From Alphaproteobacteria bacterium (GTDB lineage Bacteria > Pseudomonadota > Alphaproteobacteria > RF32 > CAG-239), in contig JAFUSA010000005.1 of assembly GCA_017480745.1 (NCBI GenBank), forward strand, positions 4,462 through 68,461: 64,000 nt of DNA. The letters are read 5' to 3'. A model generated the notes under the pieces. That model did no database searches, was not told where the DNA came from, and was given only the letters and a program-made list of their open reading frames with translations. Both the position numbers and the translations under genes were made by a program. How positions within the stretch are numbered: position 1 is the first letter of the stretch; every line of letters begins with the position of its first letter. This document shows positions 2,718 through 64,000 of the stretch, one piece after another.

Positions 2718-2931
2718 ATTCATGTTCTTCAAATAATAATTAATTTTAGTATATTATTCTATAAAATCAGCTTGCATCTTAAAAATTGTTTAAATCAGAA
2801 CTTTACATAATGAATAAACAAAACACCACACAAAAGAATACTAACCCCTAATTTGAGAGAGCTTTTTTGTTTTAATTATTTGTTAATGGAGAATAAGATA
2901 TACTGAATGGAAGATTCAAAACAGATAAAAG

Positions 2932-3795
2932 GTGCTTATTGATTTGAAAAAAAATCTTAAAGTATGTGTTTGCTATCATCGACCGGCATTTGTTTTTGAA
3001 GAAGAGTGTTTTGTGCCAATGTGGTCAGGAAAAGATGTTGCTCATGAAATTTCCAAAGAAGGTAGTGCACTTTCAGAAGAACAAATTGATTGGATGGAAA
3101 AGCATTGTGTTGGAGATAATACCGGAGATAACATATCCAAAGAGAATCGTAAATATTCAGAAATAACTGTTTTATATTGGGTTTGGAAAAATTATGCTAA
3201 ACTTGGCAATCCGAAATATATAGGTTTTATGCAATACAGACGGCATTTTTTGTTAGATTGTAATAGTTTCAATGGTATAGAAGCTGATCACTTTAATCAG
3301 GTTTATATTGATAAAATTCCAGATGATTATGCTAAAAATATAGGTCTTACAGAAAAAAATATTTTAAATATTTTAGAAAATTATGACGGTATTGTTGCCT
3401 GTAACGATACAAAACAAAGTATCAGAAATTATAATGAAACGCATTGTTCACAAGATATTAAATATTATAACAAAACGTTGGAAATTATTGATAATGATTG
3501 GCCAGATATATCTTTTGCCGCACATCATTATGAAAAAGAGACGTATCACTCTTGGTCGCAATGCTTTGTAATTCAAAAAGAGCATTTTTTTGAATATTGC
3601 GAATTTTTGTTTGATGTTTTGAAAAAACTTGATGTTTTCTGCAAAGATGATTATCAAAAATTAAGTGTTGAGCAACAAAGAATTTTAGGATATGCGGCTG
3701 AAAATCTTTGGGGTATTTATTGGAGATATTTAACTGATAAAGGATTAAAATTTAAATGTGTTCCATTGATTTTTAACAAAAATCCTTTTATTTGA
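2932..3795 (+). CDS. DUF4422-like putative polysaccharide glycosyltransferase
   Basis: 287 aa, GTG start. The overall pattern (VCYHRP.., YSEITVLYWVWKN, FMQYRRHF, ILGYAAENLWGIYW) resembles, from memory, DUF4422 exopolysaccharide biosynthesis proteins. Confidence 0.5.
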   Translation: MLIDLKKNLKVCVCYHRPAFVFEEECFVPMWSGKDVAHEISKEGSALSEEQIDWMEKHCVGDNTGDNISKENRKYSEITVLYWVWKNYAKLGNPKYIGFMQYRRHFLLDCNSFNGIEADHFNQVYIDKIPDDYAKNIGLTEKNILNILENYDGIVACNDTKQSIRNYNETHCSQDIKYYNKTLEIIDNDWPDISFAAHHYEKETYHSWSQCFVIQKEHFFEYCEFLFDVLKKLDVFCKDDYQKLSVEQQRILGYAAENLWGIYWRYLTDKGLKFKCVPLIFNKNPFI

Positions 3796-5873: not shown

Positions 5874-5976
5874 TTCAATTATCTGATATATGCCGCAAAA
5901 TAATTTTGACTACCTACAAAACTGCCGACGCCATTACAAGCATCGGCAGTGCGCTTGATTATTTTGCAAAAATAGT

Positions 5977-6242
5977 TTGACTTTTGCATTTTTTATGATA
6001 TAGTGAGGGAAGAACTTCGGTTCGGAGCTTTGACAAGCTCTTGCTAAGTTAGGTGTTTTAGGACACCGTAGTAAAGATATAATGAATATCTCCGATGTGG
6101 TCGGGGAGCCTGTGATGGATGTTCAGGGCTTCTGCCTAAAGATTACAGGAATCGTTTAACTTAGCATGATTTGTCAACTCTCCGATCGCCGTTTGGCGGT
6201 CTGTTTTTTTTAATAAACAACTTTAACAGAGGAGATAAAATT
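5977..6242 (+). promoter_or_regulatory. Promoter plus type B structured leader of pilin-like gene P1
   Basis: TTGACT (5977-5982), 16 nt, then TGaTATAGT (5996-6004). The leader has GAAC-UUCG-GUUC (6012-6023). A long-range pairing joins GCUAAGUUA (6043-6051) to UAACUUAGC (6157-6165). The box GUCAACUCUCC (6173-6183) precedes the hairpin GAUCGCC-GUUU-GGCGGUC (6184-6201), which is followed by a T8 run. Confidence 0.7.
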
Positions 6243-6893
6243 ATGAAAAATTTTGAAATTAAAAATGAGTCCGGCAGAAGTATGATAGAAATGTTAGGCG
6301 TGCTTGCCATCATTGGTGTTTTGAGTGTTGGCGGAATCGCCGGATACAGCAAGGCGATGACTAAATATAGAATCAACAAAACCATTGAACAAATAACTCT
6401 TATTGCCGGTAATGTGCGTGCGTTCTTTGCTCCGCAACACAATTATGATGGACTTGACAGCTGCTCTGATGATAACTCTTATTGCAAATTAATCAGAAAA
6501 GCCAAACTAATACCGGATGAAATGTGGGATGATACTTATAAAAGATTTAAAAATGTGTTTGGGTATAGGGTTGATTTAATGACGAAAAATAGGTCTACTG
6601 ATGGCGACAAGCAGGCATTTGATATTTATTACTCTATAGGAGATAATATGGAAACCTGTATAGAATTGTTAAGTTACGACTGGCGTATGTCTGGTGCGCA
6701 AGCTATTCAAATCGGTGGTCCCGCGGGGGCTGTTAATTTTAAACTTCCCGTTGCCGTAGATAAAGCTGTTGAGGCATGTTCGGAAACTATCAGTAAAAAC
6801 CGGATGTATGGAGGATCCTTTCCTGATATGCTTTTTTTCTTTGATATAAATTTAAACAGCACATATTGGAGTTCTTTGACTTGGGCAAATTAG
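6243..6893 (+). CDS. Type IV pilin-like protein P1 (class III signal peptide)
   Basis: MKNFEIKNESG|RSMIEMLGVLAIIGVLSVGGIAGYSKAM. Gly at -1, Glu at +5, then a hydrophobic helix. ATG at 6243 follows GAGGAGA. The ORF-track extension to 6171 runs through the leader RNA. Confidence 0.85.
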   Translation: MKNFEIKNESGRSMIEMLGVLAIIGVLSVGGIAGYSKAMTKYRINKTIEQITLIAGNVRAFFAPQHNYDGLDSCSDDNSYCKLIRKAKLIPDEMWDDTYKRFKNVFGYRVDLMTKNRSTDGDKQAFDIYYSIGDNMETCIELLSYDWRMSGAQAIQIGGPAGAVNFKLPVAVDKAVEACSETISKNRMYGGSFPDMLFFFDINLNSTYWSSLTWAN

Positions 6894-6954: not shown

Positions 6955-9900
6955 TTAAGCAACCTTCATCAAACGGGTTTCGTTAGTCCAAAGAATATAC
7001 GATTCGACTCGCCATTCCTGATATATCTGTTTTATTAACTCGGCATAAAGCATTAATTGCGTTTTATACGCCGGCGGAGTATGTTCCAAATCAGCTGCTG
7101 CTTCGCGATTAGTTTTAAAATCCACAATTATTACCCGATGTTCCTCCGGCAAAGTTATCAAACGGTCAATTTGCGCAGAAATTATTTTATCCCCTACTCT
7201 ACCGATAATCGGAACTTCGGCTTGAGAATGTTCGCCGAACAGCCAGTCAAAGTGCACACTGTTGATTAAATTAAGCACTTCGTGTTTAATTTCCGCCTGT
7301 TTATTCGCACTAAAATCCCCGGCATTGCGATGCAGATATTCATCAATCAAGGCCTGATAATCATTTGCTTGTGGCGGCAAAAATTGCAACAACTTATGAA
7401 TAAGTGTGCCGCGCCGATAATAAACTGCATCATCTTTGAGTGGAGAAGCTGAATCCACGTCGTCTTCATCAACCAATTTTGATGGTGTGTATGGCTTTCC
7501 TAAACCGTTTTCATTTTCGGCTTCAACAAACATCCAATTTTCAAAATCAGCCTGTTCTTCGGCAGAAGAATTGTTTTTATCTTGTTTTTTCGGTAAAATA
7601 TCCGGTGTTTCATATACTAATCCGATGTTTTCTTCGGCAACGCCAAAATCCTTAAAGCCGTTATAACACAGTGAATACCACGAATTTTCATCTATATCAT
7701 TGCTATTGCTGTATCCGCAAACAATTAAAGTATCTTCGGCACGTGTTAACGCCACATAAAGCAACCGTCGATATTCTTCCAATTCTGCTTCTTTTATTTT
7801 TTGCAAAATATTTTCGCAACAGTCTTCATAACTATCCCCACACAACGGATAATATGCTAAATCGTTGTCTGTTAAAAACGCTTGCTTATGTTGCGGTTTA
7901 TGATATGAAACAGTATCAGGCAAAAATACCACAGGCGCTTGTAATCCTTTGGAATGGTGAGCGGTCATCAACCGAACAGCATCGTTGTCCGCATCCTCTC
8001 CTTCACGTTTTATTTCCACATCACTTTGCCCCATCCAAGCCAAAAAACCTTGCATATTGGGAATTTGCGTTTGCTCATAAATTAAAGCTTGATTCATAAA
8101 TTCATCCAACGCATCTTCAACCTCAACTCCCATACGGGCAATAAACTTTTTGCGTCCGTCTTGCTCTCGCAAAACACGAGTATATAATTCGTATGGACGA
8201 ATATAATCTAAATCATCAAACAAATCTTTTAGCTGTTTTGTAACGTTATTTTCGTATTTTTTCGTCTCTTGTAAACATGTCCAAAGTAATTTATTGCCGC
8301 GCCCGAAGCATAAGTCTTCCAATTCGGCATCGGTTAATCCAAACAAAGGAGATTTAAGCACCTCAGCCAAAGATAAATCATCTTGTGGCAATAATAAAAA
8401 CTTGCCCAAAGATAGTAAATCTTGCACAACAATTTGCTTTGATAAAACAATAACATCAGCACCGGCAATGTTAACATTTTCTTTTTTGCAAGCACGAATA
8501 AAATCTGTTACAAAATCATTTCGTTTACGCACCAAAATCATAAAATCACGATAGTGCAATGGATGTGCGGTATGAGCACTTTTATCAACCATTGTGCGGA
8601 TTGTGGCGGCCATTTTTTGGGCCAACTTCGTGCGCACAGATACACGTTGCGTCATTTCCATAGGAGGCAACCACTCTTTATCATTTACAACTTTATCATC
8701 TTTTTGTGCAACCATCAGAGGCCAAATTTCCACCCGTCCAAACTGACCGGCACGCACCGGAACATGGTTAACTTTTTCGCCGGCAGAAACTACTCCGTCA
8801 GCAACATTATTTTTGGCAAACAGATGATTCACCGTTTCCAAAACCGCCGGTGCCGAACGAAATGAATTATGTAAATTCACACGAGCAAATTTATCTTTGG
8901 CCTTAGTGGCAAAATAAGATGCCATTTCATCAAATTTATGCGGATCCGCTCCTTGAAAACTATAAATAGATTGTTTGCGATCTCCCACCACAAAAATGGT
9001 GCGATCTTGTTCCTTTTGTCCGTCACCGGCAAAAAATTCCTCGCTCAAGCTCTTAACTATTTGCCACTGTTCGGGCGATGTATCTTGCGCCTCATCAACC
9101 AAAATATGGTTAATTCCCCCGTCTAATTTAAACAAAACCCACGAAGATGTTGCTGAATCTGACAACAAATCAACGGTCAAACGAATTAAATCACTATAAT
9201 CAAGTTTGGCGCTTTTCTGCTTATACTCTTCGAACCGGTTGTTAAGCTCCTGTGCGATGGTAAAAAAAGCTTTTGTAGAATTATATAAATTTAAATTTAT
9301 CAGTGTTCTTTCCAATTCTAAAACATCTTCGGCATCTTTAATTAAATTTTCCAAAGTCTGCGGATTTTTTTCGGCATTTTTTTTGGTAATCAAAGAGCTG
9401 TCAGCCCGACGTTCCCCTTCTTTTGTTAAAAACAAGTTGCGGTATTCTTCATAAGTTTCGCCTCGCAAACCGTGAGATAAAACCTCTTCCATTGCTTTCA
9501 TTTTTTTCTGATCATTTGTTGAACCACCGGATAGCACTTCCATATATTGTGCTAATTTATGCGCACTTACCTTTTGCATAAAATCGGCTTTTAAATCCTC
9601 GGCAGTATATATTGGATTAACACTTAATTTTTTTTGCAAATCTTGTAAAAAATTATCAATCCCGTTATGCTTAACCAAAATCTCGGCAATTTTGTAACGA
9701 TTTTTCGTTACGTCTTCAATCATATTTTCAAAAGGTTCTTCCTTCATCTCCCTCGTCAAATATCTTATAGCATCACCAACGGGGGCGCTATTATGCTTAC
9801 TCAGTAAATTTGTTTGAATACTCTCCAAAATATCAGACGATTCACGATCATTCATAATTTCAAAATAAGGAGAAATACCTGCTTCAAGAGGAAAACGTTT

Positions 9901-10344
9901 TAAGATATTCTGGCAAAAACTGTGAATAGTCTGAATCTTCAAGCCACCGGGTGTATCAAGCAAACAAGCAAATAATGTGCGAGCCTTATTTCTGAATTGA
10001 TGCAATTTATCGGCAGAATCGGCTTCGCTTCCCAATATATTGAGCAAAGATTCTTCCAATTTTTCTTCCGGCATAACCGCCCATTCACTCAAACGCTTTG
10101 AAATGCGTGTATTCATCTCTGCCGCTGCTGCTTTGGTATATGTTAAACACAAAATCTGTTCAGGTCTAACATTGTGCAATAACAACTGCAAAACTCTATC
10201 AGACAGCACTTTTGTTTTTCCGGTACCGGCAGAAGCCTCTACCCATACCGAAGTATGTGGATTTGCGGCCTTGCGCTGCTCTTCTGTTGCATTTTTTTTG
10301 CGCGCTTCCACCTCATTTTTATAATCTTCAATTACCTTAATCAT
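6955..10344 (-). CDS. addA: Double-strand break repair helicase-nuclease AddA
   Basis: 1129 aa. UvrD-type helicase motifs (ASAGTGKT, DEAQDTSP) and a C-terminal nuclease motif (IIVDFKTN). Lies directly downstream of addB. Confidence 0.85.
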   Translation of the reverse strand: MIKVIEDYKNEVEARKKNATEEQRKAANPHTSVWVEASAGTGKTKVLSDRVLQLLLHNVRPEQILCLTYTKAAAAEMNTRISKRLSEWAVMPEEKLEESLLNILGSEADSADKLHQFRNKARTLFACLLDTPGGLKIQTIHSFCQNILKRFPLEAGISPYFEIMNDRESSDILESIQTNLLSKHNSAPVGDAIRYLTREMKEEPFENMIEDVTKNRYKIAEILVKHNGIDNFLQDLQKKLSVNPIYTAEDLKADFMQKVSAHKLAQYMEVLSGGSTNDQKKMKAMEEVLSHGLRGETYEEYRNLFLTKEGERRADSSLITKKNAEKNPQTLENLIKDAEDVLELERTLINLNLYNSTKAFFTIAQELNNRFEEYKQKSAKLDYSDLIRLTVDLLSDSATSSWVLFKLDGGINHILVDEAQDTSPEQWQIVKSLSEEFFAGDGQKEQDRTIFVVGDRKQSIYSFQGADPHKFDEMASYFATKAKDKFARVNLHNSFRSAPAVLETVNHLFAKNNVADGVVSAGEKVNHVPVRAGQFGRVEIWPLMVAQKDDKVVNDKEWLPPMEMTQRVSVRTKLAQKMAATIRTMVDKSAHTAHPLHYRDFMILVRKRNDFVTDFIRACKKENVNIAGADVIVLSKQIVVQDLLSLGKFLLLPQDDLSLAEVLKSPLFGLTDAELEDLCFGRGNKLLWTCLQETKKYENNVTKQLKDLFDDLDYIRPYELYTRVLREQDGRKKFIARMGVEVEDALDEFMNQALIYEQTQIPNMQGFLAWMGQSDVEIKREGEDADNDAVRLMTAHHSKGLQAPVVFLPDTVSYHKPQHKQAFLTDNDLAYYPLCGDSYEDCCENILQKIKEAELEEYRRLLYVALTRAEDTLIVCGYSNSNDIDENSWYSLCYNGFKDFGVAEENIGLVYETPDILPKKQDKNNSSAEEQADFENWMFVEAENENGLGKPYTPSKLVDEDDVDSASPLKDDAVYYRRGTLIHKLLQFLPPQANDYQALIDEYLHRNAGDFSANKQAEIKHEVLNLINSVHFDWLFGEHSQAEVPIIGRVGDKIISAQIDRLITLPEEHRVIIVDFKTNREAAADLEHTPPAYKTQLMLYAELIKQIYQEWRVESYILWTNETRLMKVA

Positions 10345-10361
10345 CAGCGGTTCCTCAAATC

Positions 10362-13271
10362 TTACTGTTCATCATCTTTAACAGACCACTCTAAAAGTCG
10401 CGACAAGTGTTCATAATTGCTACTATATTTACTACTACTGTTTTGGGTTAAATACGGACGATTCGGATTATCAAATTCCGTTATTAATTCACGTAAAATA
10501 CCGTCTATTTTTTCTGCTGCCTGTTGTGTTTGTTCAAAATCAGTATAATTTTCAGCCTTATCCTTAAAACCCCAATAGCGCAAACTATTAACTTTTCGAG
10601 CTCTAATACCCTCAAAACCGCCTTTCTCCGCTATCAAACCTTCTATCGGTAGCTGAGGAGCCGTGCCGGCAACCATTTCTTTGCTACTGCGCATTTTTCC
10701 GGTTTTGTAATCAATAATATTGATAAATCCGTCTTTTGTTTCATCCACACGATCAGCTTTGGCTGTTATTTGAAAATTGCCGGCCGGAGCAATATAGTTA
10801 ATACAACCGGTTATTTCGTTATGAATCTCGCTGATATTTTGACGATATGAAGTTTCTACATCTACCAACCAGTTTATGATATTAATGTAGCGTGGCCACC
10901 AAAATGCCATAACATCTAAGGATATACCGGAATCGGCAAAGAATTTTTCTCCTAATTCAGAAAGCTCTCGACGTGCCAATCCGGCTTCCGGAAATTGACT
11001 TTTATACTTATCATTGAAAGTCTGTAAAATCTCATGCACAATGTTACCAAAATCAACACTTAATTTTTCACCATCTAAATCATCAAGAGGATATAAAGAC
11101 AAAACATATTTTGCATAAATGACATACGGATCGCGCATTAAATTTTCCACATTATTTGCCGATAATTTGCGCGGCCGGCGAGAAACAACAGGCTTAGGCA
11201 TCGGGGCCGATAAGGCGGCCATTTTTTCTCGGCGGTCAAGCATTTTTGCCCAATATGCAAACTTATTATCATAAATAAAGTTGAATTTTTTTACATTTTG
11301 CTCCTTATCACTATCATCAGTGGCAAAATTTGCTTCCAAAACAGTTTCCAAACGTAACCACCAACGCGACTTGTTTGCCGGAGCTCCATCAGCCTTTTGT
11401 GCACGCGTTAAATAAACCTCAGGTGCTTGCAACAGATTGGCAAAATCTGCCGCCGCAACACCAATACTGCGTTCCGGCAGAGGTAAGCCGAATTGTTGTT
11501 TCATCGGGCGAGACATCCACATATCGGCTTCCGGTAACTTTGGCCATACACCCTCGTTTACTTCGCCCAAAACAGTAACATCAAAACGACATAAACGCGC
11601 TTCAATAGGTCCCAAAATTTTGATACGTCTGTGAGCTCCGTATCTGTTGCGCACATTTTTTTCACTCAGCAATAAATTTAAAAATCCGCTGTAATCATTG
11701 GTTTGAATAATATCGAGTCCATCACCTTTCATCAATAAATCACTAACAAAATCTGCGGCAACCTTACCGGCATCCTTGCGCCAAATTATTTGTCCTCCTT
11801 TTTTGATATCAGTATTTGCCAGATTTTCCGCCGCTTTTATGTGAGCTTTAAAAATATCTATAAACTTTACACGTGGTTGCAAATACAAATCTTTCAGCTC
11901 CGCAAATGAGTGCCAAAAACTCTCTAATAACAGTTCGGAATCCGGATTTAATTTTTTTTGTTTACGCCATGCCAGCTCAATTTGGTGCACCATCTTATTA
12001 AATTGACTACGCTCATAACCACATGCGGTAAACGGATGTTTTAATAAAGCAATAACCGACGTTTGAGTATTTTGCTCCAACACATCAATTATCAGCCTTA
12101 AATAAATTCCGAGTGGAGTTAAATTAAGCGGTTGACCGGCAGAATCATCTGCATAAATATTCCATTTTTTCAATTCGGCCACCACTCGACGAGATAAATT
12201 TCTATCCAACGTTACCAAGGCCGCCGTTTTATCTTTTTCTTCCATCGTTCTTCGCAAAATCAAAGCTATCGCCTGCGCCTCTTGTCGCACATCATCGGTT
12301 GTAACTAAGTGAATATGCTTAAAAGCGTTCTCTGATAAACTGTTAACACCCAAATTTCGCCAATCGGCAGAAGAAGATGACGGACGCATTATTTCTGAAA
12401 CGGCTTTTTCTTTTTCGCTTATTTTTTCATCGGGCAAATTAACAACCGCAAAACGAGAAATCTCTAAACTTTCCAACAATTCTTTCAGTTCAAACTGGGG
12501 ATGATTTTCATCGATATTTTGCCACGATTTATCATCCAAATAAGTATCTAAACCATATAAATACAGCTCACCTTGCGGCAAATTAATTACACACTCGGCC
12601 AATTCTTTCAAATACGGAAAAGCAGCCGTTGTTCCGCACAAAATAACCGGTTTAGCCATATTTAATTTTTTCCACAAAGCCATTTCTGCGCGCAACAAAT
12701 TTTTACGCCGATCCGCTAAATCTATCATCCCCTTTTCTGCCAAAATATGTGGCCAATGAGATGTAATTATTTGCAATAACAACAAAGTTTGCTGCCAATG
12801 ATCAGAATATTCCTCAGGAACCAAATTTTTTAAATCTTCAGTATTTAATTCTTCATTTTTTATCAAATCAAGCAATTTGCCAAGACTTTTAGCCAACGCA
12901 TATGCTTGTGCTAATGACACCTGTTTAAGACCAAATCGACTACCTTGCATAATCAAGCGTGTAAAAATAAAAATGCGCTCATCGTTGCTTATGGCCGGAC
13001 TAAGCGCCGACAATATATCAGATGCCGATGTTAAATAAACTTCTTCGTCATCTAAATCAGCCACCGGAGCAATGCGCGGTAAGATTATCGGAGATAAACC
13101 GCTTTGTCGCACAAAAGCTTCCGTTAAATTTTGACACGCACGACGATTGGGCATCAAAAACAAAACATCCGCCAATTTTTGCGGATTTTCACTATACCTT
13201 TCAATAAAACGCTCGGCCAAAACATCCACAAAAGATTGTGTGGCCCTTATATTATAAACTTTGTTCGTCAC
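10362..13271 (-). CDS. addB: Double-strand break repair protein AddB
   Basis: About 970 aa with C-terminal PD-(D/E)XK-like ADRVDE..IIDYKTG. I prefer the GTG at 13271 (AGGAG 5 nt upstream) over the TTG at 13286, which overlaps the rdgB stop. Confidence 0.8.
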   Translation of the reverse strand: MTNKVYNIRATQSFVDVLAERFIERYSENPQKLADVLFLMPNRRACQNLTEAFVRQSGLSPIILPRIAPVADLDDEEVYLTSASDILSALSPAISNDERIFIFTRLIMQGSRFGLKQVSLAQAYALAKSLGKLLDLIKNEELNTEDLKNLVPEEYSDHWQQTLLLLQIITSHWPHILAEKGMIDLADRRKNLLRAEMALWKKLNMAKPVILCGTTAAFPYLKELAECVINLPQGELYLYGLDTYLDDKSWQNIDENHPQFELKELLESLEISRFAVVNLPDEKISEKEKAVSEIMRPSSSSADWRNLGVNSLSENAFKHIHLVTTDDVRQEAQAIALILRRTMEEKDKTAALVTLDRNLSRRVVAELKKWNIYADDSAGQPLNLTPLGIYLRLIIDVLEQNTQTSVIALLKHPFTACGYERSQFNKMVHQIELAWRKQKKLNPDSELLLESFWHSFAELKDLYLQPRVKFIDIFKAHIKAAENLANTDIKKGGQIIWRKDAGKVAADFVSDLLMKGDGLDIIQTNDYSGFLNLLLSEKNVRNRYGAHRRIKILGPIEARLCRFDVTVLGEVNEGVWPKLPEADMWMSRPMKQQFGLPLPERSIGVAAADFANLLQAPEVYLTRAQKADGAPANKSRWWLRLETVLEANFATDDSDKEQNVKKFNFIYDNKFAYWAKMLDRREKMAALSAPMPKPVVSRRPRKLSANNVENLMRDPYVIYAKYVLSLYPLDDLDGEKLSVDFGNIVHEILQTFNDKYKSQFPEAGLARRELSELGEKFFADSGISLDVMAFWWPRYINIINWLVDVETSYRQNISEIHNEITGCINYIAPAGNFQITAKADRVDETKDGFINIIDYKTGKMRSSKEMVAGTAPQLPIEGLIAEKGGFEGIRARKVNSLRYWGFKDKAENYTDFEQTQQAAEKIDGILRELITEFDNPNRPYLTQNSSSKYSSNYEHLSRLLEWSVKDDEQ

Positions 13272-13282
13272 TTTGGCTCCTG

Positions 13283-13879
13283 TCAAAGATTATCAATTAA
13301 ATATTGCTTGAATTTTTGCATTGCTCTGCCTCGATGAGAAATTTTATTTTTATCTTCATGCGACATTTGAGCAAAACTGCATGAATAGCCGTCAGGAATA
13401 AATATCGGATCATAACCGAAACCGTTTGCACCTAACATTTTTTGCTCTGCAATTATTCCGTCAACCCGACCTTCAAACAATTCGTATTTACCATCAGGAT
13501 ATGCTAACGAAACCACACAGGAAAAATGCGCCTTGCGACTCGGATTACCACTTTTAACAATCTCATCTAATAATTTATCCATTCCTTTTGCAAAATCACG
13601 ATTCGGAGCATAACGAGCAGAATATACACCAGGCGCACCGTGCAAAGCATCCACACAAAGACCGGAATCATCTGCAATACAAGGGATTCCGGTATACTTT
13701 GCTATTGTTTTTGATTTCAATAACGAATTTTCGGCAAAAGTTGTTCCGGTTTCTTCCACATCTGGCAAATCTAAATCATCAGCCGAACAAACTTCAACTC
13801 CCAAAGGCAGCAACATTTCTTTCACTTCTGCTATTTTTCCGGCGTTATGGCTGGCAAAAATTATTTTTTTCAACAACAT
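13283..13879 (-). CDS. rdgB: dITP/XTP pyrophosphatase (Ham1/RdgB family)
   Basis: 198 aa. FASHNAGK, ADDSGL and GFGYDPIF motifs. Confidence 0.9.
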   Translation of the reverse strand: MLLKKIIFASHNAGKIAEVKEMLLPLGVEVCSADDLDLPDVEETGTTFAENSLLKSKTIAKYTGIPCIADDSGLCVDALHGAPGVYSARYAPNRDFAKGMDKLLDEIVKSGNPSRKAHFSCVVSLAYPDGKYELFEGRVDGIIAEQKMLGANGFGYDPIFIPDGYSCSFAQMSHEDKNKISHRGRAMQKFKQYLIDNL

Positions 13880-20720: not shown

Positions 20721-20796
20721 GCCGCTTTAGCTCAGGTGGTAGAGTAGCTGATTCGTAATCAGTTGGTCGCGTGTTCGAGTCACGCAAGCGGCACCA
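20721..20796 (+). tRNA. tRNA-Thr (anticodon CGU)
   Basis: Hand-folded cloverleaf. Acceptor gccgctt/aagcggc, anticodon arm gctga-TTCGTAA-tcagt, T arm gcgtg-ttcgagt-cacgc, encoded CCA. Confidence 0.9.
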
Positions 20797-25442: not shown

Positions 25443-26219
25443 TTAATTTGCCCAAATACTGTTTTTCCAATATTCGCTATTGACATCAACATCGAAGTAG
25501 AAAGTCAGATTAATGCTATCTTTGTCATAAAGAGCTGAATCCTCTTCTATGGCTTTTGAACATACTTCAACTGCCTTATCAACGCTTACCGGAGTTTTTA
25601 GAAATGCATCGTAATCTCCAGAATCTCCCATAACATATATTGCTTTAACATTAGCATTGCTCCAATCATGAGTTGTCAACTCAATACATGCTTCTTCATT
25701 ATTTATAAGGTAATAAATACTAAACGCCTGATTATCATAGAGTTTGGATTTATCTTCTGTACCTAACGTAACCCCACCACCGAAAGGATTGGTAATAGAC
25801 ATAATCTTACCATCAGTTACAGTAATCATTTCATCTGGTAATATTTTGGCTTTTTTAACTATCGGACAGCCATTGTAAGCACCGGTAGGTTTTCCTTGTG
25901 CATTAACGCCGGAAGCACCCCAGCAACCGGAGGCATCGCAAGTGCTATCATCTTTACTACCGCAACGCACCCCGATATAATTCTTCTGTGGTCCCCAAAA
26001 GGCACGCACATTTCCGGCAATGAGAGTTGTTTGCTCAATTGTTTTGTTAATACGATATTTCATCATGGCCTTGCTGTATCCGGCGATTCCACCTACCGAT
26101 AAAACGCCAATGATAGCGAGCACGCCAAGCATTTCTATCATTGAACGACCGCTCTGTGCATTTTTCGTCATTGCGAGCGCAGCGTGGCAATCTGTATTTT
26201 TTATTTTTAAGTTTCTCAT
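25443..26219 (-). CDS. Type IV pilin-like protein P2
   Basis: MRNLKIKNTDCHAALAMTKNAQSG|RSMIEMLGVLAIIGVLSVGGIAGYSKAM. ATG at 26219 is preceded by the invariant AAAGGAAGTTTACT. The C-terminus is closest to P1 (..YW..WAN). Confidence 0.85.
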   Translation of the reverse strand: MRNLKIKNTDCHAALAMTKNAQSGRSMIEMLGVLAIIGVLSVGGIAGYSKAMMKYRINKTIEQTTLIAGNVRAFWGPQKNYIGVRCGSKDDSTCDASGCWGASGVNAQGKPTGAYNGCPIVKKAKILPDEMITVTDGKIMSITNPFGGGVTLGTEDKSKLYDNQAFSIYYLINNEEACIELTTHDWSNANVKAIYVMGDSGDYDAFLKTPVSVDKAVEVCSKAIEEDSALYDKDSINLTFYFDVDVNSEYWKNSIWAN

Positions 26220-26457
26220 AGTAAACTTCCTTTCATTATTAAAATACCTACAAAACGATACCGCCCTTATGAGGCGGTCGGAAGTTGACAACTATCACGA
26301 TAATAGTATGAGCTATTTGAATTATCTTATTCACCCATCTTCCAACCATAAAGTCGGAAATTATTTAACGTCCTTACGACGATCGTGAGAGGTTGTCACA
26401 CCCCAGACGAGTTACCTCATCTTGTGTTTATATTATCACAAAAAATCTAAAAGTCAA
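26220..26457 (-). promoter_or_regulatory. Promoter plus type A structured leader (P2 copy)
   Basis: Minus strand: TTGACT (26452-26457), TGaTAATAT (-10 at 26430-26435). H1 AGAUGAG-GUAA-CUCGUCU (26405-26422). Anti-SD box (26278-26287). Hairpin CCGCC..GGCGG (26261-26277). SD GGAAGUU (26224-26230). Confidence 0.75.
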
Positions 26458-28201: not shown

Positions 28202-28278
28202 GCGTGCTTAGCTCAGTTGGCTAGAGCAACTGACTCTTAATCAGTGGGTCGAGGGTTCGAATCCCTCAGCGCGTACCA
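28202..28278 (+). tRNA. tRNA-Lys (anticodon CUU)
   Basis: Hand-folded cloverleaf. Anticodon arm actga-CTCTTAA-tcagt, T arm gaggg-ttcgaat-ccctc, encoded CCA. The acceptor stem has two G-U pairs. Confidence 0.85.
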
Positions 28279-29853: not shown

Positions 29854-30000
29854 TTTCTTTAATGTTAAAGTAACTCTGCTGATTTATGGAAATTAGCGGG
29901 GTTTTTGCTTGTTTTTTTTTGCAAAAAAATATTTGACTTTTAATTTTTTATAAAACAGACGTATATCAGTTGCTTCTTTTCTTATTAAAATCAAATATGT

Positions 30001-32950: not shown

Positions 32951-33610
32951 TTATTCAGTCCAATAAGTTGAGTTGGCATCAACATCAAATAATAAACCCA
33001 AAAATGAATGACCATCTTCACAAAATTTCACTGATGTATCAATGTCAACCGGAACATGTAAATATTGATATTTTGTATCAACGTCAGGTGAAGTTATTAT
33101 TTTTACTCCGGCAGAAGTCCAATCATATGTGATAAGTTCTACACAGGCTTCTTCAGGAATATTAGTAAACCAGATACCAAAAGCTTTATTATCTCCACCA
33201 AATATTCCCTCACTTTTATCGATTGCTCCAAAACTATTTATACTTTCTCCAAAAGCACTTGTCATGCCGGTAATTTTTCCTGTGGATCTATCAAATATCA
33301 ACATTTCATCCGGCACTAACTTTGCTTTTTGAATAATTGCTTTTCCTGTATCTGTTGACAAATCTAATCCCGCATAATTTCCCTGAGGAGCAAAAAAAGT
33401 CCGCACATTACCGGCGATGAGAGTTATTTGCTCAATAGTTTTGTTAATTCTATACTTCATCATCGCCTTGCTGTATCCGGCGATTCCGCCTACCGATAAA
33501 ACGCCGATGATGGCAAGAACGCCCAACATCTCTATCATTGAACGTCCGGATTGGCTCCCTCGCCCCTTGCGGGAGAGAGAATCATTATTTTTTATTTTTA
33601 AGTTTCTCAT
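32951..33610 (-). CDS. Type IV pilin-like protein P3
   Basis: MRNLKIKNNDSLSRKGRGSQSG|RSMIEMLGVLAIIGVLSVGGIAGYSKAM. Same SD context as P2, P4 and P5. Confidence 0.85.
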   Translation of the reverse strand: MRNLKIKNNDSLSRKGRGSQSGRSMIEMLGVLAIIGVLSVGGIAGYSKAMMKYRINKTIEQITLIAGNVRTFFAPQGNYAGLDLSTDTGKAIIQKAKLVPDEMLIFDRSTGKITGMTSAFGESINSFGAIDKSEGIFGGDNKAFGIWFTNIPEEACVELITYDWTSAGVKIITSPDVDTKYQYLHVPVDIDTSVKFCEDGHSFLGLLFDVDANSTYWTE

Positions 33611-33852
33611 AGTAAACTTCCTTTCATTTAACTAAATCACTAATAAAAACGACACCGCCCGATAAAGGCGGCCGGAAGTTGACGACTATTTTAGCTTAAA
33701 TAGTGTTGCGTATTCGCATATAACCTATTCCGCAACCTTCCAGCCACAGCTGGATTTTTTACGCCCATAAGGCGAAGCTAAAAGAGGTCGTCAAACCCCA
33801 GACAAGTTACCTTATCTTGTCTTTACTATATCATAAAAAACTTAAAAGTCAA
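33611..33852 (-). promoter_or_regulatory. Promoter plus type A structured leader (P3 copy)
   Basis: Minus strand: TTGACT (33847-33852), TGaTATAGT (-10 at 33825-33830). H1 AGAUAAG-GUAA-CUUGUCU (33800-33817). Box (33672-33683). Hairpin CCGCC..GGCGG (33655-33671). SD (33615-33621). Confidence 0.75.
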
Positions 33853-42169: not shown

Positions 42170-42826
42170 TTAATACGATGAACTATGTGCAGAATCAAAA
42201 TTTTTAACATCAACGAAAAAAGTTAAATCATACGAGCTATGATTTGCAAGGTCTTCACATATTGTGTTAGCTAACTCTAAATCAACCGGTGTTACCGCAT
42301 GTTTATGCTCACCACCTCCAATATAAGCTCCGACAGCGGTAATATTGGCAGTACTCCAATCCTGACTGACTATTTCAATACAAGCTTCTTGCGGAATGGA
42401 GCCTACATAAATCATAAAACCGTCTAATCCAATATAACCGCCGTCATCTTGCAGAGATACTGCATTTCCAAATGCTCCGGTAATTGCAGTAATTTTACCG
42501 GTAGCACTATCAACTGTTACCATCTCATCAGGGAATATTTTGGCTTTTTTAACTATCGGACAGCCATCTTTAGAAGATTGACCAGAGCAACCGGCACTAT
42601 AGCAATAACAATACACCCCATCATAATTTCTCTGATTTGAAAAAAATGTTCGCACATTTCCGGCAATGAGTGTTATTTGCTCAATGGTTTTGTTGATGCG
42701 ATACTTCATCATTGCCTTGCTGTATCCGGCGATTCCGCCAACAGAGAGAACACCAATTATAGCAAGAACTCCCAACATCTCAATCATTGAACGTCCGTTT
42801 TGATTTTTTATTTTTAAGTTATTCAT
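42170..42826 (-). CDS. Type IV pilin-like protein P4
   Basis: MNNLKIKNQNG|RSMIEMLGVLAIIGVLSVGGIAGYSKAM. Shortest (11 aa) leader peptide. Confidence 0.85.
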   Translation of the reverse strand: MNNLKIKNQNGRSMIEMLGVLAIIGVLSVGGIAGYSKAMMKYRINKTIEQITLIAGNVRTFFSNQRNYDGVYCYCYSAGCSGQSSKDGCPIVKKAKIFPDEMVTVDSATGKITAITGAFGNAVSLQDDGGYIGLDGFMIYVGSIPQEACIEIVSQDWSTANITAVGAYIGGGEHKHAVTPVDLELANTICEDLANHSSYDLTFFVDVKNFDSAHSSSY

Positions 42827-43066
42827 AGTAAACTTCCTTTCATCAAATTAGTTATTTCATTACAAAATTAACCGCCCACTGAGGCGGCCGGAAGTTGGAA
42901 ACTATACATAGAAATAGTGAGATCTATTTGATATAACCTATTCAATCTCCTTCCGACCAAAGTCGGAAACATTTTACGTTTAGACAACGCCTATGTAGAG
43001 GTTTCCACACCTCAGACGAGTTACCTCATCGTGGTTTTATTATACAATAAAAAATTTCAAAGTCAA
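42827..43066 (-). promoter_or_regulatory. Promoter plus type A structured leader (P4 copy)
   Basis: Minus strand: TTGACT (43061-43066), TGTATAAT (-10 at 43039-43044). H1 GAUGAG-GUAA-CUCGUC (43014-43031). Box (42888-42898). Hairpin CCGCC..GGCGG (42872-42887). SD (42831-42837). Confidence 0.75.
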
Positions 43067-48865: not shown

Positions 48866-48990
48866 TTTATCCTCACTTTATTTAACAAATTGCACACAAT
48901 TTAATTGTATTCAATACCTTATTAGCAAAACATTTTATTTAAGTCAACGATTATAACGTGTATGTGTTAATTTTTTTTTGCAAAAATAGT

Positions 48991-49234
48991 TTGACATTTA
49001 AGTTTTTTATGGTATCATAAAAACAAGATGAGGTAACTTGTCTGGGGTGTCGAAACCTCTCAACTTTCGTCTGTTATGGACGTTAAATTTTCCAGCATGG
49101 CTGGAAGGTTGCAGAATAAGAATGAGTATCGAATATGCAACACTGTTTAAAGTTGACAGTTTCGAACTTCCGGCCACCTCATGAGGTGGTTAATTTTGTA
49201 ATGAAATAACTAATTTAATGAAAGGAAGTTTACT
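48991..49234 (+). promoter_or_regulatory. Promoter plus type A structured leader (P5 copy, reference copy)
   Basis: Promoter: TTGACA (48991-48996), 16 nt, then TGgTATCAT (49010-49018).
Helices: H1 49026-49043 (GUAA loop), H2 49044-49059, H3 49068-49082, H4 49090-49106, H5 49142-49160.
Platform: box AACUUCC 49165-49171, palindromic hairpin CCACCUCAUGAGGUGG 49174-49189 followed by a U-rich tract, SD GGAAGUU 49224-49230. Confidence 0.8.
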
Positions 49235-49930
49235 ATGAAAAACTTTGATACAAAAAATATTCAAATTAATTTTAATCAAGCGGAAGATGCCTTGACGATT
49301 CCTGCGGAATCGAGGCATGACCATAAGTGTGGCTCTACCACACAAAGCGGTCGCTCAATGATAGAAATGCTTGGCGTGTTAGCCATTATCGGTGTGTTAT
49401 CGGTGGGCGGCATCGCCGGATATTCAAAAGCCATGCAAAAATATCGCATCAACAAAACCATTGAACAAATAACTCTTATTGCCGGCAATGTGCGTGCATT
49501 TTTTGCTCCGCAAAGAAATTATGACGACTTATCAACCAATGTTATCAAAAAAGCCAAACTTGTACCCGATGAAATGTGGGATGGTGGAAGTGACACTAAT
49601 CCGGTTAACGCATTTGGAGGAAATTTTGTGTTTTCTGCTGAGAATTTAACATCTGCTTCCAATATATCGGGTTCTTTTGTTATTATGATTGATTCTATTC
49701 CGCAAGAAGCCTGTATTGAAATAGCCACTATGGATTGGCGCGCAGATTCCGGAAATTCTGTTGTTAATATTTCTGTTAACGGTACTATGGATGAAACATT
49801 AGCGCAATATACAGATAATTGCACAGACAGTGCTCACAATGTTTGTGCAAAAAATATGCCGATGGATATTGCAACGGCTTCAAATGCTTGCAGTTCAGAT
49901 GAAAATTTTATAGGTATTAAGTTCTATTAA
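49235..49930 (+). CDS. Type IV pilin-like protein P5
   Basis: A 39-aa leader peptide ending ..TTQSG|RSMIEMLGVLAIIGVLSVGGIAGYSKAM. Divergent C-terminal domain with KKAKLVPDEM and IPQEACIEI motifs shared with the family. Confidence 0.85.
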   Translation: MKNFDTKNIQINFNQAEDALTIPAESRHDHKCGSTTQSGRSMIEMLGVLAIIGVLSVGGIAGYSKAMQKYRINKTIEQITLIAGNVRAFFAPQRNYDDLSTNVIKKAKLVPDEMWDGGSDTNPVNAFGGNFVFSAENLTSASNISGSFVIMIDSIPQEACIEIATMDWRADSGNSVVNISVNGTMDETLAQYTDNCTDSAHNVCAKNMPMDIATASNACSSDENFIGIKFY

Positions 49931-55585: not shown

Positions 55586-55930
55586 GCGATCCGCTTACGT
55601 CTGTGGTGTCAAGACCTCTTTTACGTGCGCCGTTCGTGGCGTTAAAATATTTCCGACAATGGTCGGAAGGTTGTGGAATAAATGTGGATGAATACGCAAC
55701 ACTATTTAAGCTAAAATAGTCTTGAACTTCCGGCCGCCTTAGTGGGTGGAATTGCCGGATATTCGAAAGCAATGATGAAATATCGTATTAACAAAACCAT
55801 TGAACAAATCACTTTGATTGCCGGCAATATCCGCACCTTTTTTGCCCCGCAGAGGAGTTATGCAGATTTAAACAACAGCACTATTCTTAAAAAAGCAAAA
55901 CTTGTTCCTGAGGAAATGATAGAATTATAG
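55586..55930 (+). pseudogene. Decayed pilin-like locus: promoterless type A leader remnant fused to an internally and C-terminally truncated pilin ORF
   Basis: Residues 55586-55748 align with leader A from H2 onward (H3, H4, GAAUAA, H5, box, 5' arm of the hairpin). The sequence then jumps directly into codons for GIAGYSKAMMKYRINKTIEQITLIAGNIRTFFAPQ and stops at 55928-55930 after ..KKAKLVPEEMIEL. No SD, start codon, signal peptide or C-terminal domain remains. Confidence 0.8.
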
Positions 55931-62400: not shown

Positions 62401-62414
62401 TTTTGTAAAAAGTG

Positions 62415-62590
62415 TTTAACTTTTGATTTTTCTATGGTATGGTAAAACTAAGATAAGGTAACTTGTCTGAGGTCTCAAAACCTCTCAAGATCGTCTTTAC
62501 GGGCGTAAAATTTCCGGCATTATGGTCGGAAGGTAGTTGAATAAGAGAAATCTAATAAGCTGCACTATTTAATTTGGATAGTTTCGAACT
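62415..62590 (+). ncRNA. Orphan type A leader with intact promoter and no downstream pilin gene
   Basis: TTTAAC (62415-62420), 17 nt, then TGgTATGGT (62435-62443). H1 AGAUAAG-GUAA-CUUGUCU (62451-62468), H2, H3, H4, GAAUAAG and H5 are all present. Homology stops after GUUUCGAACU (62590). The next element is the terminator at 62612-62647. Confidence 0.6.
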
Positions 62591-62611: not shown

Positions 62612-62647
62612 AAAAAAAAACACCTTCCTTACGGATGGTGTTTTTTT
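62612..62647. terminator. Bidirectional intrinsic terminator
   Basis: A9 run, then CACCTTCC-ttac-GGATGGTG (one mismatch), then a T7 run. Lies between the orphan leader (+) and rplI (-). Confidence 0.75.
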
Positions 62648-63728: not shown

Positions 63729-63898
63729 ATTTTATCATCTCCTTATGGATTACTCAACAAATGGTTGCTTTTGAAAATTATCGCCGGCAACCGGTTAATG
63801 TATAGCCGAATATATCAAATATCCGGCAAGGGACAGCGCCAATATACATAAAAAAAAATAAAATGCAAGTCTTTTTTTCAAATTTTTGCAAAAAATAC

Positions 63899-64000
63899 TT
63901 TACATTTGCAACCTTTATGATAGTATAGATTCAGAACTTCGGTTCGAGAGCCTTAAGAAGCTCTTACTTATCACGGTGTTATTTTCGAAGCATCGTTAGA
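63899..64000 (+). promoter_or_regulatory. Promoter plus 5' part of a second type B leader (cut by window end)
   Basis: TTTACA (63899-63904), 16 nt, then TGaTAGTAT (63918-63926). GAAC-UUCG-GUUC (63934-63945) and GAGAGC..GCUCU follow, collinear with 6012-6040 of the P1 leader. Confidence 0.6.

Follow-up and report, generated by a model that had tools for sequence, protein, structure and literature searches.

What does a short CU-rich box in the leaders of a group of bacterial pilin genes pair with, and what might that pairing control? The question arises from a 64,000-nucleotide (nt) stretch of an Alphaproteobacteria bacterium genome (GenBank assembly GCA_017480745.1, contig JAFUSA010000005.1, positions 4,462 to 68,461), referred to here as the window. 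A reading made from the letters alone (the sequence-only reading) had proposed that the box, which lies just 5′ of a hairpin named H6, is complementary to the Shine-Dalgarno (SD) sequence of the downstream gene and changes together with it between leader classes. We found that the element is real and important and that the kind of logic proposed for it was right, although the box partner backed by covariation is the 3′ arm of an upstream hairpin, H4, and not the SD. Our preferred reading, to which we give a probability of about 0.6, is that the box is the hinge of a cis-regulatory leader RNA of ~210 nt, a riboswitch-like attenuator, which precedes type IVb pilin paralogues of uncultured gut and rumen Alphaproteobacteria.

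The window holds leaders of two classes, type A and type B, with complete copies labelled A1 to A4 and B1 (Table 1), and homologues were collected from other genomes. More than 7,700 proteins belong to the pilin family, and those with a named source all come from metagenome-assembled genomes (MAGs) labelled Alphaproteobacteria. Scans of species-representative genomes and metagenomes with pilin alignments gave 159 loci, and the loci that were fetched originate in rumen and gut samples. A search upstream of the pilin genes, using nhmmer and a covariance model of the 3′ domain (R1), found the leader in many MAGs and metagenomes, and additional copies were taken from contigs encoding related pilins. 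Structure statistics were computed on a MAFFT alignment of 23 leaders of type A and of a further class, A′, and refer to these leaders unless another set is named. Type B leaders are detected weakly by R1, which misses B1, and an nhmmer search for them yielded three full and two partial copies. Because so few were recovered, type B statistics rest on four leaders.

The best-supported long-range helix of the leader was formed by the box and the H4 3′ arm, in agreement with the earlier proposal that the box has alternative partners. In this helix, P1, 98.7% of the cells were paired and 5 of the 10 pairs had changed on both sides, as in CUUCCAGCU with GGCUGGAAG, CUUCCGGUC with GACCGGAAG and CUUCCUGCU with GGCAGGAAG. 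Duplex energies were between -15 and -20 kcal/mol. P1 closes a three-way junction containing helices P5 and P6 and adjoins a pseudoknot, in which the 6–7 nt directly 5′ of the box (the pre-box) pair with the loop of hairpin H2. Neither the pseudoknot nor the role of P1 as closing helix of a junction had been part of the sequence-only reading. The pseudoknot covaried at every position (UCGAAA/UUUCGA, UAACAA/UUGUUA, AGACAU/GUGUCU with a G·U pair, and UGAAAG/CUUUCA). Considered together, H2, the pseudoknot, P1, P5 and P6 had 97.4% standard pairs, against 33–45% when the partners were slid, and 23 of the 30 pairs showed changes on both sides. The observed values were matched by 0 of 500 shuffles.

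P1 and the pseudoknot were also kept in the type B leaders (B1, L028, L064b and L160) and in a divergent form, type C. The H2-loop and pre-box pairs homologous to those of B1 covaried in the alignment and in the other type B leaders. At L160, a change in the H4 3′ arm, GGAUGG, was left uncompensated opposite CUUCC. In B1, P1 joins 6178-6187 to 6099-6108. The box as originally delimited thus combines the last bases of the pseudoknot strand with the first 7 nt of the P1 3′ strand. The internal loop of P5 had an invariant AAUA on its 3′ side and an AAU on its 5′ side that was invariant or nearly so, which suggests a putative ligand- or protein-binding site. RNAalifold recovered P1, P5 and P6 from the four complete type A copies of the window, and did not recover the pseudoknot. 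Minimum-energy folds computed without pseudoknots mixed the alternative pairings and were equivocal.

The H4 3′ arm also has a local partner, the H4 5′ arm. The H4 hairpin was 88.2% paired versus 24–55% when slid, with four pairs changed on both sides; it was less perfect than P1, and its energies ranged from -4 to -18 kcal/mol. At the other end of the domain, the 5′ arm of H6 begins 4–5 nt inside the P1 3′ strand in every leader. H6 energies were between -8 and -13 kcal/mol, with a tail of U6–8 in most genomes. H6 and its U-rich tail had been taken to suggest termination, and this was upheld by a terminator scan that flagged 6184-6201 and 49172-49191 in the window and by the canonical form, with a U6–8 tail, seen elsewhere. 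As H4 competes with P1, and P1 overlaps the base of H6, the three form an arrangement of anti-antiterminator (H4), antiterminator (P1) and terminator (H6).

Two other mechanisms were considered and set aside. Attenuation by a leader peptide was rejected, since no conserved AUG or open reading frame was present upstream of H4 in an alignment of 22 leaders; the only short reading frame, the two-codon AUG-AGG-UAA in hairpin H1 of the window copies, was missing elsewhere. Binding of a CsrA-type protein to a GGA loop was dropped on account of the sequence of the type B H4 3′ arm, GGGGAG.

Complementarity between the box and the Shine-Dalgarno sequence

The box and SD were located in the window as had been described. 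In A1, AACTTCC stands at 49165-49171 and GGAAGTT at 49224-49230, ahead of an ATG at 49235, and in B1, CAACTCTCCGA stands at 6175-6185 and GAGGAGA at 6229-6235, ahead of an ATG at 6243. The A1 H4 3′ arm is present as TGGAAGGTTG, one base away from the range given for it, at 49102-49111. The box string CAACUUCCGG, said to occur in all four complete type A copies, was exact in 2 of 4 only, A1 having CGAACUUCCGG and A4 CAACUUCCGA. The inverted repeat AACTTCC-N40-70-GGAAGTT had exactly four occurrences in the window, one in each complete type A leader (26224-26286, 33615-33680, 42831-42896 and 49165-49230), against an expected count of 0.02, and four sites were reached in 0 of 100 shuffles. These four copies are paralogues in which the block from the SD to the start codon, GAAAGGAAGTTTACTATG, is fully invariant. 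They therefore count as one observation and not as four.

The type B complementarity of UCUCC with GGAGA had been read as meaningful, and this could not be maintained. It amounts to 5 base pairs (bp) only. In leaderless pilin genes the longest complementary run between the SD window and the 75 nt upstream already averages 5.2 nt, and the type B match is therefore at chance level. GGAGA is moreover the default SD of the lineage, occurring in 77 of 108 leaderless pilin genes, so that the comparison of type A with type B is uninformative as to whether box and SD change together. That claim survived in another form, as the independent class A′ showed the effect, with moderate strength.

The SD GGAAG was found in 19 of 21 type A leaders versus 1 of 107 leaderless pilin genes (Fisher 2e-19, relatedness ignored), and GGAG served as SD in 83% of the leaderless genes. 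One locus, L159, had GGAAG as SD without an upstream leader. In type A the GGAAG SD was kept while the linkers between H6 and SD had diverged beyond alignment. The 5-bp core CUUCC/GGAAG was likewise kept outside the genome of the window, whereas its AA/UU extension was confined to that genome and the L023/L099 clade.

In class A′ four elements had changed together: the H4 5′ arm (CAUAC), the H4 3′ arm (GGAUG), the box (CAUCC) and the SD (GGAUG or GGAUU). First seen in L105, it has syntenic orthologues with different linkers in L165, L163/164, L166-168 (GGAUU plus a GGAUG over the start codon) and L169 (GGAUU), and it recurs at three further pilin loci, L170, L172 and L173. Altogether the A′ SD, GGAU(G/U), was present in eight pilin-linked lineages and four genomic contexts. 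Cross-class combinations, in which GGAUG would follow a type A box or GGAAG an A′ box, were absent among the leaders (26 distinct rows). In the same rows the 5-bp core was paired in 93.8% of cases versus 86.9% in shuffles, with 0 of 500 shuffles as high, and its covarying pair was U-A 16 times and A-U 7 times. Between the classes, cognate box and SD gave complementary runs of 5–6 nt, versus 3–4 nt for non-cognate combinations. Most leaders had 5–7 bp of complementarity between box and SD, with the H4 3′ arm competing for the box, and the type C leader L036b had 6 bp (AGCUCC with GGAGCU).

The A′ motif GGAUG itself makes an AUG. In L105 (1663-1690) this AUG is in frame with the pilin gene, and in L166-168 (L166, ~9985-10003) the called start codon is the AUG of the second GGAUG. 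Judging from these sequences, box pairing at such sites would cover the start codon as well as the SD. Two A′ loci, L170 (~2840-3000) and L172 (~2480-2640), carried a ~190-nt insertion between H6 and SD, richer in G and C, starting with GTAGGTCATCTTGAGCCCCTTTAGGGGGCGTCAAGATCT and containing a long hairpin. The insertion is possibly a small mobile repeat, and GGAUG was still the SD downstream of it.

Several observations weigh against a conserved helix between box and SD. Extended to 8 bp, the type A/A′ helix was paired in 77.2% of cases versus 76.4% in shuffles, with 194 of 500 shuffles as high. Its flanks did not covary (GCUUCC/GGAAGAU in L024, UACUUCC/GGAAGGU in L035, AACUUCC/GGAAGAG in L026), and the covariation of box and SD is a single column, probably from one event that paralogues inherited. 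The rule that anchored the comparison (box CC; first GGA upstream of the start codon) had fixed three of the five core pairs beforehand. There were exceptions as well, namely L077 (SD GGAGAAAG), L054 (GAAGGAUU), L174 (GGAAU) and L049 (GCGGAG, before a non-pilin gene). In type B the register of pairing was not conserved (AGAGGAA in L064b) and the SD is the default GGAGA, and a 5-nt complement of the SD somewhere upstream is common by chance. In folding without pseudoknots, the probability of the box:SD helix was 0.10, 0.62, 0.00 and 0.04 in A1 to A4 and 0.005 in B1. On the side of termination, the type A copies of the window itself have weak U tails, UUAAUUUUG and UGUCGUUU.

Two statistics were discarded in the course of this comparison. 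SD complementarity as such was given up, leaderless genes scoring almost as high, and counts of GGAT in 110-nt windows were uninformative because these windows included coding sequence.

The proposals of the sequence-only reading thus fared unevenly. Of its three-way alternative pairing, the pairing with the H4 3′ arm stood, and the 7–8 bp box:SD helix was not conserved. Thermodynamic modelling of the alternative structures was equivocal, with box:SD helix probabilities of 0–0.6. The expectation that box and SD would covary in the homologues of other genomes was borne out at one core column, probably through a single event, and failed for the flanks and the four exceptional loci. We consider the box–SD pairing plausible and weaker than P1. 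The alignments moderately support, through the comparison of A with A′, a 5-bp box/SD core that would be more than chance.

The proposed switch and its alternatives

In the mechanism that we propose, each copy would be transcribed from its own sigma-70 promoter. A strong promoter of this kind with an extended -10 was predicted at every complete leader copy, and the same promoter core stands upstream of every leader copy. In the folded state, the box (CUUCCGGCC in type A, CUCUCCGAUC in type B) would pair with the H4 3′ arm as P1 and close the P5/P6 junction, and the pre-box would form the pseudoknot with the H2 loop. P1 would take up the bottom 4–5 nt of the H6 5′ arm and, by using the base of that arm, would act as an antiterminator, leaving the SD free. 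This state is predicted to be ON. In the alternative state, the H4 5′ arm would hold the H4 3′ arm in a hairpin, the anti-antiterminator, and H6 would form and end transcription. This would free the 5′ half of the box (CUUCC, CAUCC or UCUCC) to pair with the SD core (GGAAG, GGAUG or GGAGA) of any read-through RNA, and this state is predicted to be OFF at both levels. Combined control of termination and SD sequestration, as originally suggested, is structurally plausible in that the box overlaps the bottom 4–5 nt of H6; its weaker half is the box:SD pairing, which falls short of P1. The comparisons show helices P1, P5, P6 and H2, the pseudoknot, the H4 hairpin, the overlap of P1 with H6 and the class-specific match of box and SD; we infer the switching, the assignment of the ON state, the pairing of box with SD in vivo and the trigger. 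A ligand, a protein or the kinetics of folding could act as trigger.

One alternative would be transcription attenuation only, with the box constrained by P1 and H6 and its match to the SD a by-product of GGA-rich tracts and of copying of the whole unit by duplication or gene conversion. We regard this as possible and as a minority view. It fits the covariation of P1, which is far stronger than any box:SD signal, and the chance level of a 5-nt complement. The SD-to-start block, 100% identical in the window paralogues, is as expected under gene conversion, and the truncated and fused leader copies described below point to frequent recombination. The four exceptional loci and the ~190 nt that separate H6 from the SD in L170 and L172 likewise speak for it. 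What it explains poorly is the retention of the non-canonical SDs GGAAG and GGAUG behind fully diverged H6-SD linkers when leaderless paralogues have GGAG(A). Nor would it predict that the A-to-U change in the SD matches the changes in the box and the H4 3′ arm exactly, with 0 cross-class combinations in the 26 distinct rows.

The same box could also act in trans. If the terminated leader (about 165–210 nt, ending at H6) were a small RNA, its box might pair with the SDs of paralogous pilin mRNAs, giving cross-repression and mutually exclusive expression. In favour of such a scheme, all type A genes of one genome have the same box and the same SD block, and the closest Rfam family, sRNA-Xcc1, is reported to have been isolated as an RNA of ~88 nt and is called trans-acting (PMC2996969; Chen et al. 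2011 as relayed in PMC12189769). There are also truncated leaders that bear a promoter and lack a gene, at 62401-62590 in the window and at ~13077-13293 in L162. However, the truncated copies lack the box itself, the broken pseudoknot of the 62401-62590 copy indicates decay and not function, and the cis arrangement accounts for every feature without a trans step. We consider the trans scheme improbable. Still less probable, in our estimation, is that the SD has the H4 5′ arm, instead of the box, as its partner, which would sequester the SD in the P1 state and reverse the translational logic. The H4 5′ arm and the box both complement the SD-like H4 3′ arm, and covariation alone cannot tell these partners apart. 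The lengths of the matches favour the box: the A1 H4 5′ arm matches the SD by UUCC only, versus 7 bp for the box; the A′ arm CAUAC gives 3 bp versus 5 bp for the box CAUCC; and in the L044 group the arm is CCGAC.

The cis-acting, box-hinged attenuator is thus the reading that we prefer. More speculatively, the leader family, and by extension sRNA-Xcc1, might be a new riboswitch class, an idea that we put forward tentatively. Its junction-plus-pseudoknot domain would sense a signal related to surface structures, such as a second messenger, and one box would control both termination and translation through a four-strand logic of H4 5′ arm, H4 3′ arm, box and SD; terminated leaders might in addition cross-repress paralogous pilin mRNAs in trans. 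The downstream genes hint at a signal of this type, being pilins, one PF05159 capsule gene and one gene with a below-cutoff PF13413 match. The capsule polysaccharide biosynthesis gene follows a type B leader in L064 (2419-2690), and the divergent type C leader in L036 (2320-2585) precedes a small gene with a weak helix-turn-helix match (PF13413, 18.3 bits versus a cutoff of 24.6). The regulon may extend beyond pilins.

Uncultured gut and rumen Alphaproteobacteria possess dozens of pilin paralogues, many of them behind this leader. A shared RNA switch, if real, would be the main control point for which pili, and perhaps which capsule, are made in the host. The natural A and A′ alleles provide a ready compensatory set for the H4 5′ arm, the H4 3′ arm, the box and the SD, and the dual termination-and-translation model is therefore directly testable.

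Leader copies and their surroundings in the window

Eight leader copies were identified in the window by blastn and alignment: four complete type A copies, one complete type B copy (B1), one type B copy cut by the window end (B2) and two damaged type A copies (Table 1). The gene downstream of each complete copy encodes a type IVb pilin-like protein (Pfam Bundlin/PilS). The SD GGAGA of B1 has its complement, UCUCC (6179-6183), in the 5′ half of the box, and the same arrangement of box, P1 and SD complement recurs in L028, L064b and L160.

Table 1. Positions of leader copies and of the features of leaders B1 and A1, numbered from the first nucleotide of the window
Feature	Position	Strand	Details
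B1, type B leader	5950-6245	+	complete; upstream of pilin gene 6243-6893
B1 promoter	5977-6004	+	TTGACT, 16-nt spacer, TG-TATAGT
B1 hairpin H2	6025-6040	+	loop UUGACA(A) at 6030-6036, pseudoknot partner of pre-box; read from sequence
B1 hairpin H4	6089-6108	+	5′ arm UCUCCGAU, 3′ arm GUCGGGGA(G); 6099-6108 (GGUCGGGGAG) doubles as P1 5′ strand
B1 helices P5 and P6	6109-6171	+	P5 6109-6116 with 6142-6149; P6 6150-6155 with 6166-6171; inside P1; type A homologues covary
B1 pre-box	6172-6177	+	UGUCAA; pseudoknot 3′ strand to H2 loop; includes first bases of the box as originally delimited
B1 box proper	6178-6187	+	CUCUCCGAUC; P1 3′ strand, 10 bp with 6099-6108
B1 intrinsic terminator H6	6184-6211	+	stem-loop 6184-6201, tail TGTTTTTTTT; 5′ arm shares 4 nt with P1 3′ strand
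B1 SD and start codon	6229-6245	+	SD GAGGAGA 6229-6235, start codon 6243-6245; pilin gene 6243-6893
A1, type A leader	48960-49240	+	promoter-to-start-codon features 48991-49238; upstream of pilin gene 49235-49930
A1 promoter	48991-49018	+	
A1 hairpin H1	49026-49043	+	
A1 hairpin H2	49044-49059	+	
A1 hairpin H3	49068-49082	+	
A1 hairpin H4	49089-49108	+	
A1 P1 5′ strand	49098-49107	+	
A1 helix P5	49108-49113 with 49136-49141	+	
A1 helix P6	49143-49146 with 49156-49159	+	
A1 pre-box	49160-49165	+	
A1 box / P1 3′ strand	49167-49176	+	
A1 hairpin H6	49172-49191	+	
A1 SD	49224-49230	+	
A1 start codon (ATG)	49235	+	
A2, type A leader	43079-42822	-	box core 42890-42896, SD 42831-42837; upstream of pilin gene 42170-42826
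A3, type A leader	33868-33607	-	box core 33674-33680, SD 33615-33621; upstream of pilin gene 32951-33610
A4, type A leader	26468-26216	-	box core 26280-26286, SD 26224-26230; upstream of pilin gene 25443-26219
B2, type B leader	63884-64000	+	promoter, H1, H2 and start of H3 visible; interrupted by window end
Damaged type A copies	62401-62590 and 55599-55749	+	

The five full pilin paralogues in these 64 kb, those downstream of the complete leaders, share an invariant N-terminal portion of ~45 residues (N-terminus GRSMIEMLGVLAIIGVLSVGGIAGYSKAM), and their C-terminal domains are highly variable. The pattern resembles that of families which diversify antigenically or functionally via recombination.

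The damaged copy at 55599-55800 lacked the promoter and H1, ran from H2 through the H6 3′ arm and was then fused directly to a conserved pilin coding segment, GGIAGYSKAMMKYRINKT. Its SD, start codon and signal peptide were absent, and the junction was at GGGTGG, which is similar to both the H6 3′ arm and Gly-Gly codons. The fused copy looks like a recombination product or pseudogene. The copy at 62401-62590 and the one in L162 are independent truncations that extend from the promoter through the pre-box, and both stop exactly at the boundary between pre-box and box. In the former, the pre-box GUUUCGA no longer fits its own H2 loop, UCUCAAAA, and the copy is therefore chimeric or decaying; downstream of it, at 62619-62647, there was a hairpin containing CCUUCC with a U7 tail. 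A 3′-half remnant in L160 (16918-16993, minus strand) consisted of the P5 3′ strand, P6, pre-box, box and H6, with no pilin gene downstream. An orphan leader promoter core, TTTGCAAAAAAATATTTGACTTTTAATTTTTTATAAAA, was located at 29912-29951 (plus strand), with no recognisable leader or plus-strand gene after it. The type B pilin gene is followed directly by genes for an AddA/AddB-type helicase-nuclease (6955-13286, minus strand), and the same neighbourhood was found in L165 and L166. Two tRNA genes are present in the window, at 20721-20793 and 28202-28275 (plus strand).

Comparison with known RNA families

At Rfam gathering thresholds, the window matched tRNA models only, at the two tRNA genes. 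Below these thresholds the leader resembled sRNA-Xcc1 (RF02221), with scores of 29.4 bits for A1 (49099-49183, E 0.0017), 38.5 bits for L036 (1349-1431, E 0.0014) and 30.4 bits for L105 (1536-1628, E 0.12), all lower than the gathering score of 53 bits. Model positions 1-87 aligned end to end on the 3′ domain of the leader. The outer helix of the model corresponds to P1 (GGCUGGAAG with CUUCCGGCC), its inner stem with the internal-loop bases AAUA and GAAU to P5, its second hairpin to P6 and its joining strand UU.GA to the pre-box. On A1 the model aligned the same P1, P5 and P6 that were derived independently and covary, and the two architectures agree. At E up to 5 the model was unmatched on the type A leaders of L035, L023, L026 and L077 (4 of 7 loci) and on the type B leader of L028, and a BLAST search of the sRNA-Xcc1 consensus against plasmids gave zero matches.

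Like the pilin leader, sRNA-Xcc1 is multi-copy and often stands just upstream of a gene. It has been recorded upstream of symE in Xanthomonas integron cassettes (bioRxiv 10.1101/2025.06.18.660453) and of an ORF6N gene in phage APSE (bioRxiv 10.1101/2020.03.17.996009), and five tandem copies were reported from Xylella (PMC12189769). It was described as a stand-alone, trans-acting small RNA of 88 nt (PMC2996969). Unlike such a stand-alone RNA of ~88 nt in integron, transposon or plasmid cassettes, the domain is here embedded in a ~210-nt leader, ~75 nt downstream of its predicted start, with H6, the SD and a chromosomal pilin gene after it. The pilin leader also adds a 5′ domain (H1–H4), the pseudoknot, the competing H4 arm, a separate terminator hairpin and the SD, and it differs in host and context (gut Alphaproteobacteria, pilin genes). 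We suggest, from the alignment and its scores, that the pilin leader is a distant relative or variant of sRNA-Xcc1 and not a member of the family. Conversely, the widespread sRNA-Xcc1 may in truth be a cis-acting leader in its terminated form, which, if true, would change the annotation of that family.

In its general plan the leader is close to ON-type transcriptional riboswitches in which the P1 3′ strand overlaps the terminator, such as the pbuE adenine riboswitch and the c-di-GMP-II riboswitch upstream of Clostridioides difficile pilA1. The c-di-GMP riboswitches are a known precedent for the control of type IV pilin genes. As in these, a conserved multi-helix junction is closed by P1, and the P1 3′ strand is common to the 5′ arm of the terminator. 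The leader has two general features of a riboswitch, a covarying structured domain with invariant unpaired bases and a terminator that is mutually exclusive with an aptamer-type helix, P1. Rfam riboswitch models, including c-di-GMP-I and -II, were unmatched on B1 and A1 (E up to 10) and on seven further loci (E up to 5). The leader differs from ON-type riboswitches in that the H4 5′ arm provides an additional anti-P1 strand and the box may also pair with the SD.

The leader also recalls the classical attenuator with its 1:2, 2:3 and 3:4 pairings and the SD/anti-SD/anti-anti-SD switches, since H4-5′:H4-3′, H4-3′:box and box/H6 share strands and are mutually exclusive. As in the SD switches, a CU tract, here the box, resembles an anti-SD, and the H4 3′ arm imitates an SD. 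Unlike the classical attenuator, it has no conserved leader peptide, and its sensor is not ribosome stalling. Its junction and pseudoknot are far more elaborate than an RNA thermometer or a simple attenuator. Taken as a whole, and on comparative grounds, the pilin leader has the appearance of a hitherto undescribed on/off RNA switch that would control surface structures.

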